From positions 3,520,001 to 3,584,000 of the forward strand of contig OZ241875.1 of the NCBI GenBank assembly GCA_965203325.1: 64,000 bases of DNA, read 5' to 3'. Positions 9,195 through 52,622 of this stretch are shown here, piece after piece. This DNA is from a bacterium. Its GTDB lineage: Bacteria > UBA8248. A program made the translations under genes and the position numbers. The first letter of the stretch is position 1, and every line of letters begins with the position of its first letter. The notes under the pieces were generated by a model, which was not told where the DNA came from, did no database searches, and saw only the letters and a list, made by a program, of their open reading frames with translations.

Positions 9195-9468
9195 GGGGTT
9201 GTTGAAGAAGCTCTCACATCTCTCTCATCCTGAAAACCAACCCCCCCTACCCCCCCTTAACAGGGGGGTAAAAAAAGAAAGCCCCCTTGTCAGGGGGTAT
9301 GAAATGGCGATGCCCGCCACCGATAGAGGGGGGTTTTGATTTTTCTTGCCCCCCTGTCAAGGGGGGGTAGGGGGGGTTGCCTTTATCCTCTGACATGGGG
9401 GGTTGGGGGTCGAACGCGACCGGAGAGAGAGTGTTCGCTCCCTTGACAAAGGCTTTCTCAACAACCCC
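9195..9468. mobile_element. MITE-like element with IS1182-type ends and internal C/G-tract inverted repeats
   Basis: GGGGTTGTTGAAGAA (9195-9209) and TTTCTCAACAACCCC (9454-9468); internal 30-bp inverted repeat 9239-9268 / 9349-9378 with one mismatch; extra CCCCCTTGTCAGGGGG hairpin near 9282. Confidence 0.8.
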
Positions 9469-20946: not shown

Positions 20947-21194
20947 GGGGTTGTTGAAAAAGTCATCCTTTTCAGTGGATGAAGAGGACACCCCTCTCGA
21001 CCGGAAAACCACCCCCCCTACCCCCCCTTGACAGGGGTCAAAACCGACCGAAGAGGGAGGTTTTGCAAGACGATGTGTTTCTCGTCAATGGCTTATGCAA
21101 ACGCTCGTTCATCACTCGCGTTTGACCCCTGTCAAGGGGGGGTAGGGGGGGGTGCCTTTATCCCCTGAGGAGGAGGGCCTTTCTCAACAAACAC
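20947..21194. mobile_element. MITE-like element, same family as 9195-9468
   Basis: GGGGTTGTTGAAAAA and TTTCTCAACAAACAC ends; perfect 31-bp inverted repeat 21012-21042 / 21121-21151; shared GCCTTTATCC segment. Confidence 0.8.
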
Positions 21195-29802: not shown

Positions 29803-30672
29803 ATGTCCAAAACCTTCACCCTCATGCTGGTTCATGCGCACCCCGACGATGAGTGCAGCAGCACGGGCGGTCTGATTCTCAGGAGCGCGCGCGAGGGCCA
29901 CCGCGTCATTCTCATCACCTGCACCAACGGCGAGATGGGCAAGATGGAGCATCTCGGCGAAAACCTCGACCCCGACTCCGAGGCGGACCAGGACAGACTC
30001 GGGGAGATCAGGCTCGAGGAACTCGAACGGGCGGCGCGGATATTAGGGGTTTCCGAGGTTCACGCCCTGGGCTATCGCGATTCGGGCATGGACGGCTGGG
30101 AGGGCAACGGGCATCCCCGGGCATTCAAGAACGCCGATGAGGAAGAAGTCGTCGGCAGATTAGCGGGCTACATACGCCGCTATCGCCCCGACGTGGTCGT
30201 TACCTACAACGAGCAGGGCGGGTACGGCCACCCCGATCATTTGATGGCCAACAAGGTCACCACCGAGGCGTTAGAGGCGGCGGCGGACGCCGCCAGATTC
30301 CCCGAAGAAGGGCAAGAGGCCTGGCGCGTGCCCAAGTTCTACCACACCGCGTGGTCGCGCACGAAGATGCTGCGCGCCTGGCGCTGGATGAAGTTGTTCG
30401 GGCAGAAAACGCCGCTCGACGATCCCGATTTCCGGGAGGACAAGTACGGGACGCCGGATGAGCTCATCACGACCCGCGTGAACATCCGCAGATACCTTCG
30501 CCGCAAATGGCGCGCCCTCACGGCGCACAAGAGCCAGATCAACGGGAATTTCTTCTGGTGGTTCGTCCGCATGACGGGGCGGTGGCTCTACAACGAGGAA
30601 ACCTTCGTTTGCGCCCGCTCGCAGACAGGGGTGCGCGACGAGGAGAGGTCGGTTTTCGAGGGCCTATCCTGA
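29803..30672 (+). CDS. PIG-L/MshB/Mca-family deacetylase
   Basis: HAHPDDE, LGYRDSGM, GGYGHPDH, AHKSQ. Confidence 0.92.
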   Translation: MSKTFTLMLVHAHPDDECSSTGGLILRSAREGHRVILITCTNGEMGKMEHLGENLDPDSEADQDRLGEIRLEELERAARILGVSEVHALGYRDSGMDGWEGNGHPRAFKNADEEEVVGRLAGYIRRYRPDVVVTYNEQGGYGHPDHLMANKVTTEALEAAADAARFPEEGQEAWRVPKFYHTAWSRTKMLRAWRWMKLFGQKTPLDDPDFREDKYGTPDELITTRVNIRRYLRRKWRALTAHKSQINGNFFWWFVRMTGRWLYNEETFVCARSQTGVRDEERSVFEGLS

Positions 30673-31062
30673 ATCGTCCGAAAGGGGTTTGCTGACCTCG
30701 ATCAGAAACCCGTTCGGGTCCTTCAGCATGAACATGCGCACGCCCCAGGGGGCGTCGAGTGGCGGGAAAACGGTTTCCGCGCCTTTTTCCACGAGGACGT
30801 CATAGGCGCGGTCCACGTCCTCGGGCGTGAGCGTGACGACGACGCCCGAGCCCCTGGGTTCCCGGAGGGGTTCGAGATTCCACTTGCGCATCTCCTCATC
30901 GGGAATCGGCGCGTGGATGACGAGCGAGGTTCCTCCCACGTCATATCGCACGTGTTGTTTCTCCCGGCTCGCTTCTTTCAGACCCAGCGTTTCGGTATAA
31001 AAACGACACGACGCCTCGTAGTCTTTGGTGATGAGGAAAACGGCGGGCAGCGATTCGAACAA
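30664..31062 (-). CDS. VOC/glyoxalase family protein
   Basis: FYTETLGL, DVDRAY, PWGVRMFMLKDPNGFLIEV. Confidence 0.88.
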   Translation of the reverse strand: MFESLPAVFLITKDYEASCRFYTETLGLKEASREKQHVRYDVGGTSLVIHAPIPDEEMRKWNLEPLREPRGSGVVVTLTPEDVDRAYDVLVEKGAETVFPPLDAPWGVRMFMLKDPNGFLIEVSKPLSDDSG

Positions 31063-31106
31063 TTCAGACTCCTTGCAGTTTTGATGCGCTCGTTTGGAGA
31101 AAAGGA

Positions 31107-31790
31107 ATGCCCCATCCCCTGGTCGAGCTGAAAGAAGTGTCCAAAACTTACGTCGCAGGCGATGTGCTCATCCACGCGCTTAAAGATGTGAACTTCCGGG
31201 TAGAACAAGGCGAGTTTATCACGGTTTCGGGCCCGAGCGGCTCGGGCAAGAGCACGTTTCTGCACTTGATGGGCGCGGTCGATGCACCCACCGGCGGCGA
31301 GGTTTTTCTGGGCGGACGGGAAATATCGCGCCTGAGCGATGAGGGCCTGAGCGAAATTCGCCGCAAAGAGGTGGGCTTCATCCATCAGTTCTTTCACCTC
31401 ATGCCGACGATGACGGCTTATGAAAACGTCGCCCTGCCGCTACTGCTTCAGGGCCGGAAGCGCGCCGAGATCAAAGAGATGGCCGAAAACGCCCTGGCGC
31501 GGGTAGGGCTTGAGAACCGTATGCGCAGCTTCCCGAGGCAACTCTCGGGCGGCGAGATGCAGCGCGTGGCCGTTGCGCGCGCCGTCATCCACAAACCCCG
31601 TCTCATCCTCGCCGATGAGCCGACGGGAAATCTCGATTCTGAAAACTCGCAAAACGTCCTGGAACTCGTCGCAGAACTCCACGAAGAAGATGGTTTCACT
31701 GTCGTCATGGCGACGCACGACCAGATGCCCTTGCACTACGCCACCCGGAGGGTCGGAATAGTTGATGGCCGCCTGGAGGGGGGTTGTTGA
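31107..31790 (+). CDS. ABC transporter ATP-binding protein (LolD/MacB type); stop codon lies in the MITE end
   Basis: [25 protein letters not shown]. Confidence 0.95.
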
Positions 31791-32088
31791 AAAAGACCTG
31801 GCTTCGTGATTCGGCGTATGTAATCGACCGGGGAGGGAATATGTCTCCATCCGCGTTTGGTGACGTAGGGGCGGCCCCCCGTGGCCGCCCGTATCGAAGA
31901 TGTCTACCCTCGTGGTTGTCCCGCATCAGGACAGGCACAGGGGCCTGTCCCTACGGTGTACAATTCGATAATCGGGATGCCCTCCCCCAAAGGGGTTGTT
32001 GTCTTTCCGATCGAGAGTGTTCACCGTCATTCCGGCGGAATGACGGCAGTGGCCAATTCCGGGCGAGAAGGGGTTTTTCAACAACCCC
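31780..32088. mobile_element. MITE with perfect 15-bp terminal inverted repeats and 5-bp target duplication
   Basis: GGGGTTGTTGAAAAA / TTTTTCAACAACCCC; GGAGG at both 31775-31779 and 32089-32093; GTAG-REP doublet and CGTC palindrome inside. Confidence 0.92.
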
Positions 32089-32103
32089 GGAGGCGGCGGG
32101 CTG

Positions 32104-34698
32104 ATGAGCCTCACCTTTTCCCTCTTGCGTCTTCTCGCGTGGCGGCGCCTCAAGGAAGAGCCGTTTCGTCTGTTGCTCACGTTGGTGGGGGTGGCCTTGG
32201 GCGTCGCCGTATTCATCGCCGTCAAGATGGCGAACGAGACTTCCATCCGGGCGTTTGAGAATAGTTTGGTCGCCATCTCGGGCAAGACGCAACTGGAAGT
32301 CTCCGCGGGCGGTCTGGGCGTGGATGAAAATCTCATCTTGAGGCTCCGGGCGATGCGGGAGGTGAAAAGGGCGGCGCCTGTCATTCAGCACCACGTCTGG
32401 ATAAGAAAGGCGGATGGCTCAGGGGCCAAATGGCGGCGCGGCGCCCCTTCGCAAGGACGCGCCGTCCTGGCCCTGGGACTCGATTTGCTGGGAGACAATG
32501 ATTTCAGGGGCTATGAGTTCGAAAATAAGTATTCGCGCGAGGAAATTCTCTCGCGCATCGCCGACCCGCAGGGTCTGTTCATCGCCCGTGGGGTGGCCGA
32601 TACGCTGGGCGTCGGGAGGGGCGATTTCGTTGAGGTCGAAGCCGCGCGAAGAATGCGCTTTCGCGTCCGGGGCGTCCTGAAGCCGGAAGGCATGGCGAAG
32701 TCGATGGACGGCCGCCTCCTCATCATGGACATCGGTGTCGCCCAAGAGGTGTTCGAGCGGTTCGGTCGTCTGGACAGGATCGATCTGATTCTCGAAGATG
32801 GAAGCGAAATCGAATCGATCCGCGAAAAAATCCAGCGCATTCTCCCGCCCGGCGCAGTGGTTGATCGGCCCGCGCGGCGCGGACGCGACGTGGAGAAGAT
32901 GCTGGCGTCGTTCCAGCTCAATCTCACCGTGCTGAGCGTCATCGCGCTGCTGGTGGGTTGTTTTCTCATCTACAACACGATGTCGGCATCCGTATTGCGG
33001 CGCAGGGGCGAAATCGCCACCCTGCGCTCACTCGGCATGACGGCGAGAGGAATCGTCTTCCTCTACGGGGCGGAGGCGCTTTGCATCGGTCTGGCGGGTT
33101 CAAGTCTCGGCGTCGCGATGGGGGCCTTCATGGCCCAGGGAGCGCTCTCGTTCATCTCCCAGACGATCAGGAACCTCTACGCGTTTCTGGAGGTGCGCTA
33201 TGTTTTATTAGGTCCCGAGACGCTCGTTTGGGGATTCGGCGTGGGCCTGGGCGTCGCTCTCGTTTCGGGACTTTTCCCGGCGATTGCGGCCTCGCGCCAG
33301 AGTCCACGCCAGGGCATTGTGGAGAGGCAGGGAATCGTGGAGGTGCGCCCCAAAGTTATTGCCGTTTTGATTGCAGGCGCCTTGATTACCGCTCTCTTCG
33401 CCTACTGGCTGAATCTCCAGGCACTGGCGGGGGGAACCCCTTTCCCCGGCTATCTCTCGGCGGCGGCGGTCATCCTGGCCGCCGCGCTGGCGAGTCTGCC
33501 GGTCGTCTTGCTGGGTTCGATCATCATCCGGCGGGTGCTGGGCGGCGTCTTGGAAGCGTGGCTCGCCGCGCACGGTCTGGGCAGGCACCCGCATCGAAAC
33601 GCGGTTACACTCTCCTCACTGGCGATAGCCGTGGCCATGCTGGTGAGCCTGATCATCATGATCGAGAGTTTCCGCGCCACGGTGGAAATCTGGACGCATC
33701 AGACGCTGAGAGCCGACTTCTACGCCGCGCCCGCATCGCGCTTCATCAAGGGTTCAAAGGCGAGCATTTCAGAGGATGCGTTGAAAACTATTCGTAGTGT
33801 TCGAGGCGTCGCGGCGGTCGATGGCTTCCGGGCCATACGCCTGCCCTGGCGCGGAGAGCGCATCACGCTGGCTGGCGGTGATTTCCGCATCGTGGCCGAA
33901 AGGGGCCGCCTGCTGTTCCTGGACGGCGACTCGAAAGAAACGCTCACGCGGGCGAAGAGGCGCGGCGAGGCCATCGTTACCGAGACGTTCTCGAACCTCT
34001 ACGTTGTCAAGAAAGGAGACCTCCTGCGCCTCCCGGCTCCTGGAGGCGAGGTCGCGGTGCGCGTTGCGGGCGTGTATTACGACTACACCACCGACGGCGG
34101 GTTCGTCGTGGTGGATCGCGCGTTCCTGAAAAAACACTGGAGGGATGATCGCTTGAGCTCCCTTGCGATATATCTCACGGAAAACGCGCGGCCGGAAGGA
34201 GTGCGCAAATCGCTCGGAGATGTTCTCGACCCCACCATGGTGCTGATATCGAACGCGGGCCTCAAAAAGCGCGTATCGAACATCTTCGACCAGACGTTCG
34301 CCATCACGTATGCGCTGGAGTTCATCGCCGTTCTGGTGGCCCTGCTCGGCGTGGCCACGGGGCTGAGCTCGAACATACTGGAGCGCGTTCACGAAATCGG
34401 CGCGCTGCGCGCCATGGGTTTGAACCGCAAGGGAATCATAAGCGCAATCATGGGGGAGGCGGTCATTCTGGGCGCACTCTCGGTTTTGGTCGGCCTTGCG
34501 GCGGGCGTGTGTCTGGCGGCCATCCTGATCTTCGTCGTCAACAAGCTCAGTTTCGGCTGGACGATTCAGTATATCTTCGCCTGGAAGGGCATGGTTGCTT
34601 ATCTTCTCGTCGTGGTTCTCGCTTCGCTGGCGGCGAGCTGGCTTCCCGCGAGGGCAGCGGCGGGCATCCCCATTCGGGAGGCGTTGAGCGAGGAATGA
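32104..34698 (+). CDS. FtsX/MacB-type ABC permease (duplicated architecture)
   Basis: GVALGVAV, IATLRSLG, IGALRAMG, FGWTI; two permease halves. Confidence 0.93.
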   Translation: MSLTFSLLRLLAWRRLKEEPFRLLLTLVGVALGVAVFIAVKMANETSIRAFENSLVAISGKTQLEVSAGGLGVDENLILRLRAMREVKRAAPVIQHHVWIRKADGSGAKWRRGAPSQGRAVLALGLDLLGDNDFRGYEFENKYSREEILSRIADPQGLFIARGVADTLGVGRGDFVEVEAARRMRFRVRGVLKPEGMAKSMDGRLLIMDIGVAQEVFERFGRLDRIDLILEDGSEIESIREKIQRILPPGAVVDRPARRGRDVEKMLASFQLNLTVLSVIALLVGCFLIYNTMSASVLRRRGEIATLRSLGMTARGIVFLYGAEALCIGLAGSSLGVAMGAFMAQGALSFISQTIRNLYAFLEVRYVLLGPETLVWGFGVGLGVALVSGLFPAIAASRQSPRQGIVERQGIVEVRPKVIAVLIAGALITALFAYWLNLQALAGGTPFPGYLSAAAVILAAALASLPVVLLGSIIIRRVLGGVLEAWLAAHGLGRHPHRNAVTLSSLAIAVAMLVSLIIMIESFRATVEIWTHQTLRADFYAAPASRFIKGSKASISEDALKTIRSVRGVAAVDGFRAIRLPWRGERITLAGGDFRIVAERGRLLFLDGDSKETLTRAKRRGEAIVTETFSNLYVVKKGDLLRLPAPGGEVAVRVAGVYYDYTTDGGFVVVDRAFLKKHWRDDRLSSLAIYLTENARPEGVRKSLGDVLDPTMVLISNAGLKKRVSNIFDQTFAITYALEFIAVLVALLGVATGLSSNILERVHEIGALRAMGLNRKGIISAIMGEAVILGALSVLVGLAAGVCLAAILIFVVNKLSFGWTIQYIFAWKGMVAYLLVVVLASLAASWLPARAAAGIPIREALSEE

Positions 34699-35807
34699 AG
34701 AAACTGATTCCATCTCTTCTGGCCGCCGTCATCATCCTGGGCGCTGTGCCCGCGCATCCCGCAAACTGGCGGCAAGCGCTGCCCGGCTATCGCTACCAGT
34801 TCCCCAGAGACCACGGCGCGCACGAGGCGTTCCGAACGGAGTGGTGGTATTTCTCGGGAAATTTGCAGGATGCCGAGGGCGGGGAATACCCGTTCATGCT
34901 CACGTTTTTCAGGGCGGGGCTTCGACCGGGAGCGCCCCGGAAGTCGAAAAGCCGCTGGGCGCTCCGGAATCTCTATTTCGGGCATTTCTCGGTCCTGGAC
35001 GCGAAGCGGAAGAAGCACCGGTTTTCCGAGCGAATCAGCCGGGGCGAACTCGAACAGGCGGGCGCGTCGGAGAAGGGCCTCGAGGTCTGGCTGCGCGACT
35101 GGCGCGCCGATAGCAAGGGCGGGGAAGGCGAATCTTCGTTCCGGATAAGCGCGGCGGCGCCCGGGATGAAGCTGCGCCTCGATCTGAAACCTGCGAAACC
35201 CCTCGTGATTCACGGCGAAGACGGAGTGAGCCGGAAGGCGCCGGGTCTGGGGCGCGCCTCTCACTATTATTCCTATACGCGGCTTCTCGCGTCGGGCGTC
35301 CTCGAATTGGAGGGGAGGAAGATTGAGGTGCGCGGAACGGCGTGGATGGACCATGAGTTCGGCTCGAACCAGTTGACGAAGGATCAGGTGGGGTGGGACT
35401 GGCTGAGCCTCCAGTTGTCCGACGGCCGGGATTTGATGTTATATCTCATGAGGCGAAAAGACGGGAGCGTGGAGCCCACGAGCAGCGGCACGCTGGTGGA
35501 GGCGGACGGCAGCGCGGCGCATCTGCGCCTCGGGGATTTCCGCTTCGAGGGTCTGGATACCTGGAAGAGCGAGCGAAGCGGTGCCGTCTATCCCATGGGC
35601 TGGGAGGTCGAGGTTCCGGCGCACGGCCTGCGCTTGCGGGTTGCGCCGTATGCCCGCGCGCAGGAGATTGAATCGAAAGGCAGTACGGGCATCACCTATT
35701 GGGAAGGGGGCGTTTTCGCCGAAAGCGCCCCGGGCGAAAAAAAGCTCACGGGGGTGGGATTTGTCGAGATGACGGGGTACGCTCCCGAGGGACGACCCAA
35801 ATTCTGA
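34695..35807 (+). CDS. Secreted AttH/CrtC-like lipocalin-fold protein
   Basis: Signal peptide; FPRDHGAH, TEWWY, WMDHEF, GWDW, YWEG, GFVEMTGY. Confidence 0.9.
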   Translation: MKKLIPSLLAAVIILGAVPAHPANWRQALPGYRYQFPRDHGAHEAFRTEWWYFSGNLQDAEGGEYPFMLTFFRAGLRPGAPRKSKSRWALRNLYFGHFSVLDAKRKKHRFSERISRGELEQAGASEKGLEVWLRDWRADSKGGEGESSFRISAAAPGMKLRLDLKPAKPLVIHGEDGVSRKAPGLGRASHYYSYTRLLASGVLELEGRKIEVRGTAWMDHEFGSNQLTKDQVGWDWLSLQLSDGRDLMLYLMRRKDGSVEPTSSGTLVEADGSAAHLRLGDFRFEGLDTWKSERSGAVYPMGWEVEVPAHGLRLRVAPYARAQEIESKGSTGITYWEGGVFAESAPGEKKLTGVGFVEMTGYAPEGRPKF

Positions 35808-47465: not shown

Positions 47466-47666
47466 GTGGAGAAAATCGGGCGGCAACTGTTCGGGGAATG
47501 GATTTTGGGGGGAATCGCATACATGACTCGACCACAGGGGACATTGCATTTGCCCCCTTGTCAGAGTTGTTGAAAAAGCCCTCATCGGGGGACATTGCCT
47601 TTAGCGGGAATGCCGCTTTCGCGCGAGCCCTCGATTTCCCTCGTCGAAAGGCAACCCCCCCTTGTC

Positions 47667-49182
47667 GGGGCTGTTGAAAAACCCCGTTTTGAAGCGGGAT
47701 GTATGGCGGCTCACGCGGCTTGGGAGAGGAAGCCCAATCGGCGCGTGAGGCCGCGATATGCGCTCATTCGGCGTTTCCGGGCGGCGCAGGCTCTCCACAG
47801 AGCGAACAAACGCGCCGCAACAGCGGCGGCGAGCCGCTTGAGGTTCACCGCAGCCGCCGTCAGGTAGGCCTGGATCTTCATGTTCGCAAGACCCCGGCGC
47901 ACCGCCCGCGCCAGTCCGTGCCGACTCTTCGCCTCGCCGTGATAGCCTTCGGAGCGACCCATGTGCCGGCGCCACAGCCGACCCTCCTCCTCCCCACGGC
48001 GCGCGTGGCGACGGCGTGCGCGCAACAGCGCCGGATACTCGTGCGGAACCAGCACCGTCCGGCTCGTGCGGGACTTCGACAGACAATCGGCCTTGAGCGA
48101 GCAACCCGCGCAATCGCGCGTCCTCGATACATAGTAGCGACCCCGCTCCGTCTCCTTCCGGGGACGCAGCGTCTTGCCACCCGGACACTTCACCACCTTG
48201 TGACGCTCGTCGTAGCGGAACAGTTGCAGCGGCACCCGGCTCTGGGTGGGTTCCTTCTTCGCCGGTATCACCGCGTCCACCCCCCGACGCTCCAATGCGC
48301 CGTACACCTTCGAGTACGCATAGCCACTATCCGCCGTCACCACCGCGGGCGCGCGACCCGTGAGCTCGCAAACCGCATCCAGCTGCGGCTCCATCATCTC
48401 CCGCTCGTTCAACGTCCCCGCCGTCACCTCTACGTCGAGGACAACGCCCCGCTCATCGTCCACCACCGCGTGGTGCTTGTAGCTCGGCTCGAACCCCGCC
48501 CGAGCGCTCTTGCGCGCCAGACGCGCGTCGGGGTCCGTTCGGCTCACAGGACCCGAACCCCCGCCACCGCCCTTCTTCCCCATCTCATCCGCCGAGTCGT
48601 TCTCCCGCACCACCTTCTCCGCGTGGCGCTCCGCCAGACTCTCCCAACTCACGTCCGCACGTATCAAAGACGCGTCCATGTGAACCACTTCTCCCTTCGC
48701 CACCTTCGCCTCCACGCAAGCCTGAACCGTGCGCCGAAATATCTCCTTGAACCGCTCCTCCCCCCAGCGCTGACGAATCCGCGTCAGGCTCGAATGATCC
48801 GGCAAATCCTCGTCCAGCCTGTACCCGATGAACCACCGGACCGCCAGATGCGCCTGCGCCTCGCGCAGCAGGCGGCGGTCCTCCGCGTAGCCCAGCAGCA
48901 GGCCCGCCAGCATCAACCGGATCACCACTTCCGGGTCGATCCCCGGTCGACCGTTGTCCGCGCAATAGCACTCCGCCACTTCCTCGCGAAGCCAACTCAA
49001 ATCCAGTACGCGGTCCACCTGGCGCAATATGTGATCTTCGGGAATCAACTTCTCCAGCGGGCCGGCCACGAACAAGTCCATCTGCTCGCGCCTCTTGCGG
49101 TCCAACATCTCCGGAACTCCCATCTCGGGCGAGGGGGAATACATCCATACGCTCACAAAACCAGGGGTTTTTCAACAGGCCC
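47667..49182 (-). mobile_element. IS1182-family insertion sequence, copy 1
   Basis: Ends GGGGCTGTTGAAAAA / TTTTTCAACAGGCCC; TTGTC direct repeats at 47662-47666 and 49183-49187. Confidence 0.93.
47711..49108 (-). CDS. IS1182-family DDE transposase
   Basis: GRPGIDP, LAVRWF, PDHSSL, MDAS, TADSGY, RSEG..GEAK, AVNLKRL. Confidence 0.93.
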   Translation of the reverse strand: MLDRKRREQMDLFVAGPLEKLIPEDHILRQVDRVLDLSWLREEVAECYCADNGRPGIDPEVVIRLMLAGLLLGYAEDRRLLREAQAHLAVRWFIGYRLDEDLPDHSSLTRIRQRWGEERFKEIFRRTVQACVEAKVAKGEVVHMDASLIRADVSWESLAERHAEKVVRENDSADEMGKKGGGGGSGPVSRTDPDARLARKSARAGFEPSYKHHAVVDDERGVVLDVEVTAGTLNEREMMEPQLDAVCELTGRAPAVVTADSGYAYSKVYGALERRGVDAVIPAKKEPTQSRVPLQLFRYDERHKVVKCPGGKTLRPRKETERGRYYVSRTRDCAGCSLKADCLSKSRTSRTVLVPHEYPALLRARRRHARRGEEEGRLWRRHMGRSEGYHGEAKSRHGLARAVRRGLANMKIQAYLTAAAVNLKRLAAAVAARLFALWRACAARKRRMSAYRGLTRRLGFLSQAA

Positions 49183-49271
49183 TTGTCAGGGGGGTAAGAA
49201 GAAGCAACACCCCGACGAGAGAGGTATCACTCCCCCTTTGCAGAGCAACCAACAATCACTCCCCCCTTGAG

Positions 49272-50793
49272 GGGGCTGTTGAAAAACCCCGTTTTGAAGC
49301 GGGAGGTATGGCGTCTCACGCAGCGGCGGAGAGGAAGCCCGCGAGGTGCGTGAGGCCGCCAGGAACGCGCATTCGGCGTCTCAAGGCGGCGCAGGCCCTC
49401 CACAGAGCGAATAAACGCGCCGCAACAGCGGCGGCGAGCCGCTTGAGGTTCACCGCAGTCGCCGTCAGGTAGGCCTGGATCCTTATGTTCGCAAGACCCC
49501 GGCGCACCGCCCGCGCCAGGCCGTGCCAACTCTTCGCCTCGCCGTGATAGCCCTCCGAGCGACCCATGTGCCGGCGCCACAGCCGACCCTCCTCCTCCCC
49601 ACGGCGCGTGTGGCGACGGCGCGCGCGTAACAGCGCCGGATACTCATGCGGAACCAGCACCGTCCTGCTCGTGCGGGACTTCGACAGACAATCGGCCTTG
49701 AGCGCGCAGCCCGCGCAATCGCGCGTCCTCGATACATAGTAGCGACCCCGCTCCGTCTCCTTCCGGGGGCGCAGCGTCTTGCCCCCCGGACACTTCACCA
49801 CCTTGTGACGCTCATCGTAGCGGAACAGCTGCAACGGCACCCGGCTCTGGGAAGGCTCCTTCTTCGCCGGTATCACCGCGTCCACCCCCCGACGCTCCAA
49901 TGCGCCGTACACCTTCGAGTACGCATAGCCCGAATCCGCCGTCACCACCCCGGGCGCGCGCCCCGTGAGCTCGCAAACCGCATCCAACTGCGGCTCCATC
50001 ATCTCCCGCTCGTTCAACGTCCCCTCCGTCACCGCAACGTCGAGGACAACGCCCCGCTCATCGTCCACCACCGCGTGGTGCTTGTAGCTCGGCTCGAACC
50101 CCGCCCGAGCGCTCTTGCGCGCCAGGCGAGCGTCCGGGTCCGTTCGGCTCACAGACCCCGAACCCCCGCCCCGGCCTTTGCCCTTCTTCTCCGTCTCATC
50201 CTCCGAATCGTTCTCCCGCACCACCTTCTCCGCGTGGCGCTCCGCCAGACTCTCCCAGCTCACGTCCGCACGTATCAAAGAGGCGTCCATGTGAACCACC
50301 TCTCCCGTCGCCACCTTCGCCTCCACGCAAGCCTGAACCGTGCGGCGCAATACCTCCTTGAAGCGCTCCTCCCCCCAGCGCTGGCGAATCCGCGTCAGGC
50401 TCGAATGGTCCGGCAACTCCTCGTCCAGCCTGTACCCGATGAACCACCGGATCGCCAGGTGCGCCTGCGCCTCGCGCAACAGACGCCGGTCGTGGGCGTA
50501 GCCCAGCAGCAGGCCCGCCAGCATCAACCGAACCACCACTTCGGGGTCCAGGCCCGGACGGCCATTGTCCGCGCAATAGCACTCCGCCACTTCCTCGCGA
50601 AGCCAGCTCAAATCCAGTACGCGGTCCACCTGCCGCAATATGTGATCTTCGGGAATCAACTTCTCCAGCGGGCCGGCCACGAACAAGTCCATCTGCTCGC
50701 GCCTCTTGCGATCCAGCATCGAGGGAACTCCCATCTCGGGCGAGTCGGGATAACTCCATACGATCACAAAACCAAGGGTTTTTCAACAGGCCC
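49272..50793 (-). mobile_element. IS1182-family insertion sequence, copy 2
   Basis: Same ends; TTGAG direct repeats at 49267-49271 and 50794-50798. Confidence 0.93.
49316..50719 (-). CDS. IS1182-family DDE transposase
   Basis: Near-identical to copy 1; intact frame. Confidence 0.93.
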   Translation of the reverse strand: MLDRKRREQMDLFVAGPLEKLIPEDHILRQVDRVLDLSWLREEVAECYCADNGRPGLDPEVVVRLMLAGLLLGYAHDRRLLREAQAHLAIRWFIGYRLDEELPDHSSLTRIRQRWGEERFKEVLRRTVQACVEAKVATGEVVHMDASLIRADVSWESLAERHAEKVVRENDSEDETEKKGKGRGGGSGSVSRTDPDARLARKSARAGFEPSYKHHAVVDDERGVVLDVAVTEGTLNEREMMEPQLDAVCELTGRAPGVVTADSGYAYSKVYGALERRGVDAVIPAKKEPSQSRVPLQLFRYDERHKVVKCPGGKTLRPRKETERGRYYVSRTRDCAGCALKADCLSKSRTSRTVLVPHEYPALLRARRRHTRRGEEEGRLWRRHMGRSEGYHGEAKSWHGLARAVRRGLANIRIQAYLTATAVNLKRLAAAVAARLFALWRACAALRRRMRVPGGLTHLAGFLSAAA

Positions 50794-50970
50794 TTGAGGG
50801 GGAGTCGGCAAGACGAGGGCAAAGCCCGAAGTCGCGCCGGTGGGGGGAGAATTCCGACTGATAAAAGAGGAATTCCTGCGACCGAGGACAGAAGATTTAC
50901 TACAATAAAAGGCTCCCCCCACCACATCGGCCTTCGCAAAAACCGCTCGGCCTCTGTGACTCCCCCTCAA

Positions 50971-52495
50971 GGGTCTGTTGAAAAACCCTTGGTTTTGTGA
51001 TCGTATGGAGTTATCCCGACTCGCCCGAGATGGGAGTTCCCTTGATGATGGGCAGCAGGAGGCGCGAGCAGCTGGACTTGTTCGTGGCCGGTTCCATGGA
51101 GCAGTTGATTCCCGAAGATCACATATTGCGCCAGGTGAACCGCGTGCTGGATTTGAGCTGGCTTCGCGAGGAGGTGGCGGCGTGCTATTGCGCGGACAAC
51201 GGTCGACCGGGTCTGGACCCCGAGGTGGTGGTTCGGCTGATGCTGGCGGGCCTGCTGCTGGGCTACGCGCAGGACCGCCGCCTGCTTCGCGAGGCGCAGG
51301 CGCATCTGGCGATCCGGTGGTTCATCGGGTACGGGCTGCACGATGAGTTGCCGGATCATTCGAGCCTGACGCGTATCCGCCAGCGGTGGGGGGAGGAGCG
51401 GTTCAAGGAGATATTGCGCCGCACGGTTCAGTCTTGCGTGGAGGCGAAGGTGGCGAAGGGGGAAGTGGTGCACATGGACGCTTCGTTGATACGTGCGGAC
51501 GTGAGTTGGGCGAGTCTGGCGGAGCGCCACGCGGAGAAGGTGGTGCGGGAGAACGACTCGGCGGATGAGACGGAGAAGAAGGGCAAAGGCCGGGGCGGCG
51601 GGGGTTCGGGTCCGGTGAGCCGTACGGACCCGGACGCTCGCCTGGCGCGCAAGAGCGCTCGGGCGGGGTTCGAGCCGAGCTACAAGCACCACGCGGTGGT
51701 GGACGATGAGCGGGGCGTTGTCCTCGACGTTGCGGTGACGGAGGGGACGTTGAACGAGCGGGAGATGATGGAGCCGCAGTTGGATGCGGTTTGCGAGCTC
51801 ACGGGGCGCGCGCCCGGGGTGGTGACGGCGGATTCGGGCTATGCGTACTCGAAGGTGTACGGCGCATTGGAGCGTCGGGGGGTGGACGCGGTGATACCGG
51901 CGAAGAAGGAGCCTTCCCAGAGCCGGGTGCCGTTGCAGCTGTTCCGCTACGATGAGCGTCACAAGGTGGTGAAGTGTCCGGGGGGCAAGACGCTGCGCCC
52001 CCGGAAGGAGACGGAGCGGGGTCGCTACTATGTATCGAGGACGCGCGATTGCGCGGGCTGCGCGCTCAAGGCCGATTGTCTGTCGAAGTCCCGCACGAGC
52101 AGGACGGTGCTGGTTCCGCATGAGTATCCGGCGCTGTTACGCGCGCGCCGTCGCCACACGCGCCGTGGGGAGGAGGAGGGTCGGCTGTGGCGCCGGCACA
52201 TGGGTCGCTCGGAGGGCTACCACGGCGAGGCGAAGAGTTGGCACGGACTGGGGCGGGCGGTGCGCCGGGGCCTTGCGAACATGAGGATCCAGGCCTACCT
52301 GACGGCGACTGCGGTGAACCTCAAGCGGCTCGCCGCCGCTTTTGCGGCGAGTATATTCGCTCTGTGGAGGGCCTGCGCCGCCTTGAGACGCCGAGTGCGC
52401 GTTCCTCTCGGCCTCGCGCGCCGATTGGGCTTCCTATCCCAAGCCGCGTGAGCCGCCATTCAGCCCGCACCAAAACGGGGTTTTTCAACAGCCCC
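50971..52495 (+). mobile_element. IS1182-family insertion sequence, copy 3
   Basis: GGGTCTGTTGAAAAA / TTTTTCAACAGCCCC; CTCAA direct repeats at 50966-50970 and 52496-52500. Confidence 0.93.
51045..52451 (+). CDS. IS1182-family DDE transposase
   Basis: Near-identical to copies 1 and 2; intact frame. Confidence 0.93.
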   Translation: MMGSRRREQLDLFVAGSMEQLIPEDHILRQVNRVLDLSWLREEVAACYCADNGRPGLDPEVVVRLMLAGLLLGYAQDRRLLREAQAHLAIRWFIGYGLHDELPDHSSLTRIRQRWGEERFKEILRRTVQSCVEAKVAKGEVVHMDASLIRADVSWASLAERHAEKVVRENDSADETEKKGKGRGGGGSGPVSRTDPDARLARKSARAGFEPSYKHHAVVDDERGVVLDVAVTEGTLNEREMMEPQLDAVCELTGRAPGVVTADSGYAYSKVYGALERRGVDAVIPAKKEPSQSRVPLQLFRYDERHKVVKCPGGKTLRPRKETERGRYYVSRTRDCAGCALKADCLSKSRTSRTVLVPHEYPALLRARRRHTRRGEEEGRLWRRHMGRSEGYHGEAKSWHGLGRAVRRGLANMRIQAYLTATAVNLKRLAAAFAASIFALWRACAALRRRVRVPLGLARRLGFLSQAA

Positions 52496-52537: not shown

Positions 52538-52622
52538 AGGACAGGCACGGAGGCCTGTCCCTACGGTAAACAATGCGATGATCGGGATGCCCTCCCCGAC
52601 GAGGGACTTCTCCAACACCCCC
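52538..52622. repeat. REP module plus degenerate terminal repeat
   Basis: 52538-52597 closely matches 31928-31987; TTCTCCAACACCCCC end abuts the TauE stop codon. Confidence 0.75.

Follow-up and report, generated by a model that had tools for sequence, protein, structure and literature searches.

A MITE-like element at the ATPase-permease junction of a putative exporter operon and its counterparts in related genomes

Introduction

How can a mobile element enter the overlap of two adjacent genes and leave both of them intact? The question is raised by a 64,000 nt stretch of bacterial DNA (assembly GCA_965203325.1, contig OZ241875.1, positions 3,520,001 to 3,584,000; GTDB lineage Bacteria, UBA8248), which is called the window here and is numbered from its first nucleotide. 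In the window, the gene for an ABC transporter ATP-binding protein (ATPase) and the gene for an FtsX-type permease are separated by a 309 bp sequence that resembles a miniature inverted-repeat transposable element (MITE). An earlier note, made from the sequence of the window alone, had described it as an insertion that duplicated a Shine-Dalgarno sequence and gave the ATPase a replacement C-terminus. We compared the junction with those of related genomes and found the same nucleotide occupied in most of them and empty in four. With a probability of about 80% the element is a non-autonomous MITE derivative of an insertion sequence (IS) of the IS1182 family, three intact copies of which are located 16 kb away. 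Its first insertion appears to be old, and the site seems to have been rebuilt many times since.

Results

Anatomy of the Junction

The junction consists of the following features (window coordinates).

31107..31790, + strand: gene for an ABC transporter ATP-binding protein of the LolD/YbbA/MacB type, 227 amino acids (open reading frame, ORF; Pfam ABC_tran, E-value 1.9e-32)
31775..31779, + strand: left copy of the GGAGG duplication, inside the ATPase codons L-E-G
31780..32088, no strand: MITE-like composite element, 309 bp (sequence reading, end matches and alignments)
31780..31794, + strand: left terminal inverted repeat, GGGGTTGTTGAAAAA, which supplies the codons G-G-C-stop and is identical to the IS end GGGGCTGTTGAAAAA at 14 of 15 positions
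31795..31852, + strand: left subterminal segment, about 45 nt of it similar to one IS1182-family end (alignment)
31865..31890, + strand: GTAG-headed palindrome resembling repetitive extragenic palindromic (REP) sequences; 8 bp stem GGGCGGCC, 6 nt loop
31929..31954, - strand: GTAG-headed palindrome in the inverse orientation; 8 bp stem GGACAGGC, part of a 60 nt module
31992..32001, + strand: internal repeat-like sequence GGGGTTGTTG, with CCCCCAAA just before it (sequence reading)
32024..32046, no strand: short palindrome (self-match) within a 27 nt stretch that is variable among relatives
32074..32088, - strand: right terminal inverted repeat, exact complement of the left one
32089..32093, + strand: right copy of GGAGG, Shine-Dalgarno-like, 10 nt upstream of the permease ATG; the same spacing is found in empty sites
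32094..32104, + strand: untranslated relic of the old ATPase tail, ..CG GCG GGC TGA, in which the TGA overlaps the ATG of the permease
32104..34698, + strand: gene for a duplicated FtsX-type permease, 864 amino acids, with two FtsX domains and MacB periplasmic core domains

Direct reading gives a length of 309 bp between the two GGAGG copies, which form the target-site duplication (31775-31779 on the left, 32089-32093 on the right). The ends are perfect inverted repeats, with all 15 positions of 31780-31794 present as the exact reverse complement at 32074-32088. The earlier description of the element was therefore correct to the base, and the duplication has, as it had stated, the same length of 5 bp as in the three IS copies, which carry TTGTC, TTGAG and CTCAA. 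By its size (309 bp versus transposases of 481-484 amino acids in the IS copies) the element is without a transposase gene. The inverted ends and the 5 bp duplication mark a genuine insertion of the MITE type, and as such it is nothing out of the ordinary.

The ATPase gene now ends with CTG GAG GGG GGT TGT TGA (LEGGC*). The last 11 nt of the ORF, including the TGA at 31788-31790, belong to the left repeat, which confirms that the stop codon is carried by the element. The permease has retained its GGAGG, as had been proposed: the right copy of the duplication is located 10 nt upstream of the ATG at position 32104 (context GGCTGATG). Stop and start codon are 313 nt apart in the window, and there is no TGA/ATG overlap. 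Taking out the element together with one GGAGG yields the reconstructed sequence CTG GAG GCG GCG GGC TGA TG. As read from the sequence, the segment 31992-32088 may be a shorter inner element with its left end at GGGGTTGTTG. The element is also spanned by a 106 codon ORF with a TTG start (31784-32104), which shares the reading frame of the old ATPase tail and terminates at the TGA of that tail; this ORF has probably arisen by chance from the high G+C content. The best NCBIfam match of the ATPase is LolD with 242.6 bits, which is under the cutoff of 307.75, and the protein is thus assigned to the LolD/YbbA/MacB type and not to the equivalog.

Empty and Occupied Sites in Related Genomes

Related loci were fetched with the permease as query and one genome per species. 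This yielded 20 loci, 17 of them from close relatives (82-94% amino acid identity), which are Nitrospinota or unclassified metagenome-assembled genomes. Four of the 17 relatives have a junction free of the element (L002, L014, L015 and L016). In all four the TGA of the ATPase and the ATG of the permease overlap by 1 nt and one equivalent of GGAGG is present, and the ATPases end with LEAAV*, LEAAR*, LDEADS* and LGTTG*, respectively. The sequence across the empty site is CTGGAGGCGGCG in L002 and L014. An alignment of the junction in relatives had been suggested as a check of the earlier note, which had predicted an original tail LEAAG* with a TGATG overlap; the overlap was found in these four genomes, and LEAAV* and LEAAR* are close to the predicted tail.

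The other 13 relatives contain an element at exactly the same nucleotide, which speaks against a fresh transposition in this genome. Together with the window this makes 14 occupied genomes. The replacement of the C-terminus by one of equal length, proposed for the window, holds for all of them: the ATPase has 227 amino acids and a stop codon encoded by the repeat in every one. The tails read LE(G/E/D)GC*, where the TGTTGA comes from the left repeat, with G in the window and three relatives, E in eight and D in two. The distance between stop codon and ATG in the occupied relatives ranges from 233 to 802 nt, and the interiors of the elements are not conserved between species. For instance, the 27 nt stretch around 32024-32046 is missing in L001, L003 and L011 and is about 186 nt long in L010 (alignment).

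Structure of the Empty Target

The empty target is a hairpin, GCCGCC-TGGA-GGCGGC, with a 6 bp stem of G+C pairs and a loop of 4 nt, and the duplication lies on the loop. The empty site of L002 folds with -7.7 kcal/mol (z-score -2.4; 3 of 200 shuffled sequences were as stable) and that of L015 with -7.0 kcal/mol (11 of 200). When the window and the 17 loci were searched for paired ends bordered by perfect 5 bp duplications, 10 elements at five distinct sites emerged, comprising this junction in five genomes, all three copies of the IS and, in L012, a nested element of 181 bp. All five reconstructed targets are G+C hairpins (raw folding energies of -4.8 to -9.0 kcal/mol, with no shuffle comparison) in which the duplication falls on the loop to within 1-2 bases. 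The earlier note had stated that the target is not a C/G hairpin and had proposed looser targeting or a related transposase. The first statement is contradicted by the hairpin found here, and since the duplication at the junction lies on the loop as it does at the IS sites, neither looser targeting nor a second transposase is required.

Relation to the IS1182-Family Copies

Three IS copies are present in the window.

47667..49182, - strand: IS1182-family IS copy 1, 481 amino acid transposase; duplication TTGTC in a C/G hairpin; NF033551 349.9 bits
49272..50793, - strand: IS1182-family IS copy 2, 483 amino acid transposase; duplication TTGAG
50971..52495, + strand: IS1182-family IS copy 3, 484 amino acid transposase; duplication CTCAA; NF033551 350.3 bits

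The NCBIfam model NF033551 (IS1182-family transposase, cutoff 270 bits) was applied to copies 1 and 3; the Pfam domains DUF772, DDE_Tnp_1_6 and DDE_Tnp_1 were found in all three copies. Each is about 1.5 kb long, and they are 90-92% alike over the compared stretches. Their ends are GGGGCTGTTGAAAAA or GGGCCTGTTGAAAAA and match the ends of the junction element at 14 of 15 positions. The left subterminal segment of the junction element resembles the IS ends at 49182 (copy 1), 50793 (copy 2) and 50971 (copy 3). With up to two mismatches, 14 matches to the 15-mer end motif were counted in the window, compared with 0.05 expected, and none of 100 shuffled sequences reached 14. Besides the ends, a single part of the junction element recurs in the 64 kb window: the 60 nt module at 31928-31987, found again at 52538-52597 with 90% identity. 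Elements with both of the approximately 55 nt long ends of the junction element are present elsewhere in relatives (L006:1151-1458 and L013:218-583). The IS1182-family IS is likely the autonomous partner of the junction element.

History of the Site

A tree was calculated from the two flanking genes (3252 nt, 18 genomes). The empty genomes fall at three separate positions, which requires at least three gains or losses: L002 is the sister of the occupied L004 (support 100), L014 and L016 form a pair, and L015 is on a long branch as the sister of the occupied L006 (bootstrap 86, Shimodaira-Hasegawa-like approximate likelihood-ratio test 92). If only gains are allowed, six insertions are needed (counted by eye on the tree).

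The ends of the elements have kept their orientation, since recurring end types never flip (read by eye). The IS-like left type is located beside the ATPase gene in six of six genomes, and the right end of the window type is located beside the permease gene in all ten genomes that have it, two of these ends being truncated. Derived outermost bases are common to relatives, AGGGG in L005, L006, L007, L013 and L017, and ATGG in L003 and L012.

The interiors differ even between sisters. L009 and L012 have genes that are 96% identical and elements of 303 and 798 bp, respectively, which have only the ends in common; the genes of L002, which is empty, and of its sister L004, which contains a 573 bp element, are 94.6% identical. 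Distant genomes can have similar interiors: the window and L010 are 91.8% identical over 255 nt and L003 and L010 96.0% over 174 nt, whereas the flanking genes of the same pairs are only 68-71% identical at four-fold sites (synonymous divergence, dS, about 0.5). No rise in identity was detected in the coding sequence beside the junction in genomes with near-identical interiors (90 nt windows), and a simple transfer of alleles including the flanks is therefore not borne out. In L013 the last 15 nt before the ATG match the clade of the window and not its own clade, which suggests allele exchange. Additional internal end motifs were found in six of the 14 elements, all oriented like the outer ones, and an L009-like layout would turn into that of L011 if the sequence between two directly repeated ends were lost. 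The 60 nt module is about as similar to its copy at 52538-52597 (90%) as orthologous copies are to each other, so that its conservation is a property of the repeat family and not of the locus.

The interior is thus a mosaic of GTAG palindromes and nested ends that differs even between sisters, which points to repeated remodelling of the site. We infer that the first insertion is old and not recent and that the site has been rebuilt many times since it was first occupied, through nested insertions and deletions, exchange between lineages, or excision with re-insertion.

In the sisters L010 and L011 the right repeat has been deleted (L010:2936-2985, L011:2960-2985), and the sequence before the permease reads ...GGGGTTT followed directly by CCTGGAGG. 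The direct repeat that this forms with the left flank has 8 nt (CCTGGAGG) instead of 5, possibly a scar of partial excision or conversion.

Gene Survival and RNA Structure

Neither gene is disrupted in any of the 14 occupied genomes (the contig of L017 stops 1077 nt into the permease gene, and L017 was left out of the following comparison). For the ratio of non-synonymous to synonymous substitutions (dN/dS), 78 pairs of occupied genomes gave medians of 0.114 (ATPase) and 0.152 (permease), and six pairs of empty genomes gave similar values (0.152 and 0.139). Both genes are under purifying selection, in agreement with the earlier statement that both proteins survive.

No sigma-70-like promoter was found in the region 31000-32600. 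Three terminator-like sites were detected there, where 1.7 are expected by chance, and one of them, a weak one, is located inside the element (31979-31996). Hence, there is no evidence that the element contains a promoter or terminator. An Rfam search of 31000-33000 with an E-value threshold gave no match.

The minimum free energy fold of the window RNA has -163.7 kcal/mol (z-score -3.6), and none of 100 shuffled sequences was as stable. In this fold all 15 positions of the ends are paired, and pairing of GCCGCCU with AGGCGGC covers the last three bases of the right GGAGG. According to this model, a ribosome finishing the ATPase could, in principle, unmask the binding site of the permease. An end stem of at least 13 pairs is part of the best fold in five of the 14 occupied genomes and long-range masking of GGAGG is seen in six, so that a conserved RNA bridge from stop to start across all 14 junctions was rejected. 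The earlier note had proposed that translational coupling is broken by the insertion; this may hold, but in some of the occupied genomes the predicted pairing of the ends brings the two codons close to each other. The complementarity of the two ends amounts to at least 12 of 15 positions in 11 of the 14.

GTAG Palindromes

The window contains 13 perfect GTAG-headed hairpins with stems of 7-9 bp, mostly arranged as inverted pairs, which resemble REP/REPIN doublets (positions 1795/1878, 14519/14587, 24478/24548/24566, 31865/31954, 43609/43638/43740 and 52564). Several of them are located inside elements that are bounded by IS1182-type ends. The two in the junction element have inverse orientations (31865, + strand; 31954, - strand) and different stems, and such hairpins are present in 12 of the 14 orthologous junction elements. 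A scan of 52 ORFs of the window identified no Y1 transposase domain of the REP-associated tyrosine transposase (RAYT) type. The inverted GTAG pairs, a trait of REP/REPIN sequences, are confined to the interior of the element; its outer boundaries are the inverted repeats and the duplication.

Discussion

A Proposed Course of Insertion

The element entered the loop of a small G+C hairpin in the last codons of the ATPase gene, at the overlap of its TGA with the ATG of the permease. A staggered cut duplicated GGAGG. The left copy lies in the ATPase frame, so that the terminal repeat is read as G-G-C-stop, and the right copy was left 10 nt before the permease ATG. With the left copy in frame with the stop codon of the repeat and the right copy at the permease, both genes stay intact, 313 nt apart. 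The element would later have been remodelled by nested insertions, deletions between direct end repeats and allele exchange between lineages, in addition to either precise loss or re-insertion at the same site. Translation of the permease would begin at the GGAGG of the permease gene itself, on a read-through mRNA.

Several observations weigh against this course or against the origin of the element from the IS. Mobilisation by the IS1182 transposase is only suggested, by the similarity of the ends, and no second full-length copy of the 309 bp sequence was found in the window. Hairpin targeting does not fit all sites equally well: the fold of the empty site in L014 is no better than that of shuffled sequences (65 of 200 were as stable), the empty site in L016 is without a hairpin, and no obvious palindrome is seen by eye in the flanks of a second site of the element family, behind a PIG-L family gene. 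A single gain, with the four empty genomes as one clade, was rejected (log-likelihood cost 245.8; approximately unbiased test, p = 3.7e-74). Finally, the high identity of interiors combined with the low identity of the flanks, with no rise beside the junction, excludes plain vertical neutral descent for the interior.

Alternative Explanations

The turnover at the junction could also mean that its hairpin is a preferred landing pad, hit by independent insertions or by cycles of excision and re-insertion at one position. Such a hot spot would agree with the six insertions of a gains-only history (by eye), with at least seven left-subterminal and three right-subterminal types at one site (read by eye), with the differences between L002 (empty) and L004 (573 bp) despite 94.6% identity of their genes and between the elements of L009 and L012, and with interiors that are 92-96% identical across genomes with a dS of about 0.5. 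The poorest hairpins are found in the empty genomes L014 and L016, and repeated independent hits on one hairpin are described for IS1272/TnSha1 (PMC4923244). It is harder to reconcile with independent arrivals that the orientation is constant wherever an end type recurs (six of six for the IS-like left end and ten of ten for the window-type right end) and that derived outermost bases are common to relatives (AGGGG in five, ATGG in two). An occupied site has no hairpin any more, and any re-use would therefore need a precise excision first. We regard a hot spot of this kind as possible and rather doubtful. That the hairpin has been a long-lived landing pad for IS1182-derived MITEs, with operon junction and element co-adapted over many speciations, seems unlikely to us. 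The 15 bp end gives the same three codons plus stop in either orientation and the duplication restores the ribosome-binding site, so that cycles of insertion, replacement and precise loss would be nearly cost-free in such a case; the paired ends may even keep translation of ATPase and permease coupled via RNA structure.

A function of the element in the operon would be a further explanation of its persistence. The stem of the 15 bp ends and the re-joined halves of the old hairpin would mask GGAGG until they are melted by the ribosome that translates the ATPase, and coupling would be kept across 313 nt or the ratio of ATPase to permease would be tuned. The fold of the window RNA (15 end pairs, masked GGAGG, z-score -3.6), the complementarity of at least 12 of 15 end positions in 11 of 14 genomes, and an occupancy that persists over 14 genomes with both genes under purifying selection are in line with this. 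However, the ends of any MITE pair, the end stem is found in five and the masking in six of the 14 folds, and the right end has been deleted in L010 and L011, where both genes are still intact. In addition, the modules are about equally conserved at unrelated sites (31928-31987 versus 52538-52597, 90%), which is a trait of the repeat family, and Rfam gave no match. Taken together, we consider domestication quite unlikely. The least probable explanation, and a very improbable one, is a cluster of the REP type or of the bacterial interspersed mosaic element (BIME) type that expanded at this locus by means of a tyrosine (RAYT-type) transposase with GTAG palindromes as its substrate, and not by cut-and-paste. 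The inverse 8 bp GTAG hairpins inside the junction element (31865, 31954), the 13 hairpins in the window with their mostly inverted pairs, and their presence in 12 of 14 orthologous elements would fit. However, the element is bounded by 15 bp inverted repeats and a 5 bp duplication like those of DDE-type IS and not by REP ends, its two palindromes differ in their stems, a Y1 domain was absent from the 52 ORFs scanned, and nothing of the sequence that separates the two GGAGG copies is present in the empty sites. For the outer element this explanation is largely refuted.

Comparison With Known Systems

IS1111 is an element of the IS110 family. It is the IS partner of QMITE1 and QMITE2 in Coxiella burnetii; according to PMC5896051, these extend over the last few to about 50 bp of functional genes and provide C-terminal residues or stop codons, QMITE2 carries a GTAG REP and is an IS target, and QMITE copies are conserved in position between strains. 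The junction element is similar in its MITE-supplied tail and stop codon, its GTAG REP and its conserved position. It differs in the host phylum and the IS partner. Conservation of QMITEs concerns strains of one species, whereas 14 species-level genomes with replaced interiors are concerned here, and here an overlapping gene pair has been split and the duplication is the ribosome-binding site of the downstream gene.

IS1272 and its derivative TnSha1, IS1182-family elements of staphylococci, are reported in PMC4923244 to integrate into hairpins with little sequence specificity and into the same hairpin repeatedly, by blunt cleavage of the stem, whereby part of the target is deleted and no duplication arises; palindrome targeting by other members of the family is attributed there to a review. 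The transposase family and the G+C-rich or palindromic hairpin target are the same as in our case. Unlike with IS1272/TnSha1, a clean 5 bp duplication centred on the loop was found here with no loss of target, and the junction element is a 309 bp non-coding derivative and not an IS with cargo (PMC4923244).

Small mobile sequences of the RU/ERIC type in enterobacteria, which have inverted repeats and occur inside genes, fuse in frame with host ORFs according to Delihas (PMC2759123), and one section of that paper bears the heading ABC transporter ATP-binding protein. These add stretches of peptide, whereas only three residues and a stop codon are added here and the protein length is unchanged. 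Specific insertion of IS elements into extragenic palindromes (REP), which become hot spots, is reported by Tobes and Pareja (2006, PMC1525189); the palindrome studied here is located within the last codons of a gene, and the IS families named in their abstract are not IS1182.

A published description of this MITE family was not found in the literature covered, which was limited. MITE-supplied stop codons, hairpin-targeting IS elements and REP-bearing MITEs are already in print, and no new mechanism is involved. The case stands out in one respect only: in many species an element has persisted, and has been rebuilt again and again, at a single nucleotide of an operon junction. The natural alleles before and after insertion show base by base how a MITE splits an overlapping gene pair and kills neither gene. 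The case also widens the range of hairpin-loop targeting with a clean 5 bp duplication, which now includes an IS1182-family element of an uncultured phylum and its MITEs. Annotation of these genomes has to allow for genes with element-derived 3′ ends and for hairpins at gene junctions that act as insertion hot spots and confuse operon calls based on synteny and intergenic length.

Additional Observations

The gene that follows the permease (34509-35807) encodes a protein with a CrtC N-terminal lipocalin domain and a Lipocalin_9 domain; its longest predicted ORF overlaps the 3′ end of the permease gene. ATPase, duplicated FtsX permease and lipocalin-domain gene look like a three-gene exporter module, the layout of which we take to resemble the attEFGH type of exporter.

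Another MITE site that differs between genomes is located directly after the stop codon of the PIG-L family gene (window 30660-30700). An element with the approximately 55 nt ends of the junction element is present there in L006 (1151-1458), L013 (218-583), L003 (about 880-1225) and L012 (from about 314), L001 retains only a piece of the right end (about 1499-1598), and the window is empty near 30672. This polymorphism reflects mobility of the element family away from the junction.

Further small elements with the same ends and different interiors are found at 9195-9468, 20947 to about 21195, 1734 to about 1900 and 14481 to about 14650; the first of these is listed here.

9195..9468, no strand: small element bordered on either side by a copy of the end motif (one mismatch each), interior different

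A C/G-rich module of 52 nt is common to the elements at 9195 and 20947 (9351-9402 versus 21126-21177, 88%), and those at 1734 and 14481 have a common end segment in opposite orientations.

IS copies 1 to 3 are arranged in tandem (47563-52495), each of them in a C/G hairpin. The ends of the IS begin with GGGG and finish with CCCC, so that every insertion rebuilds hairpins at its own junctions. A third TTGTC borders a 104 bp piece (47563-47666) with an end-like motif at its head. This arrangement suggests that insertions followed one another into a target that had been regenerated.

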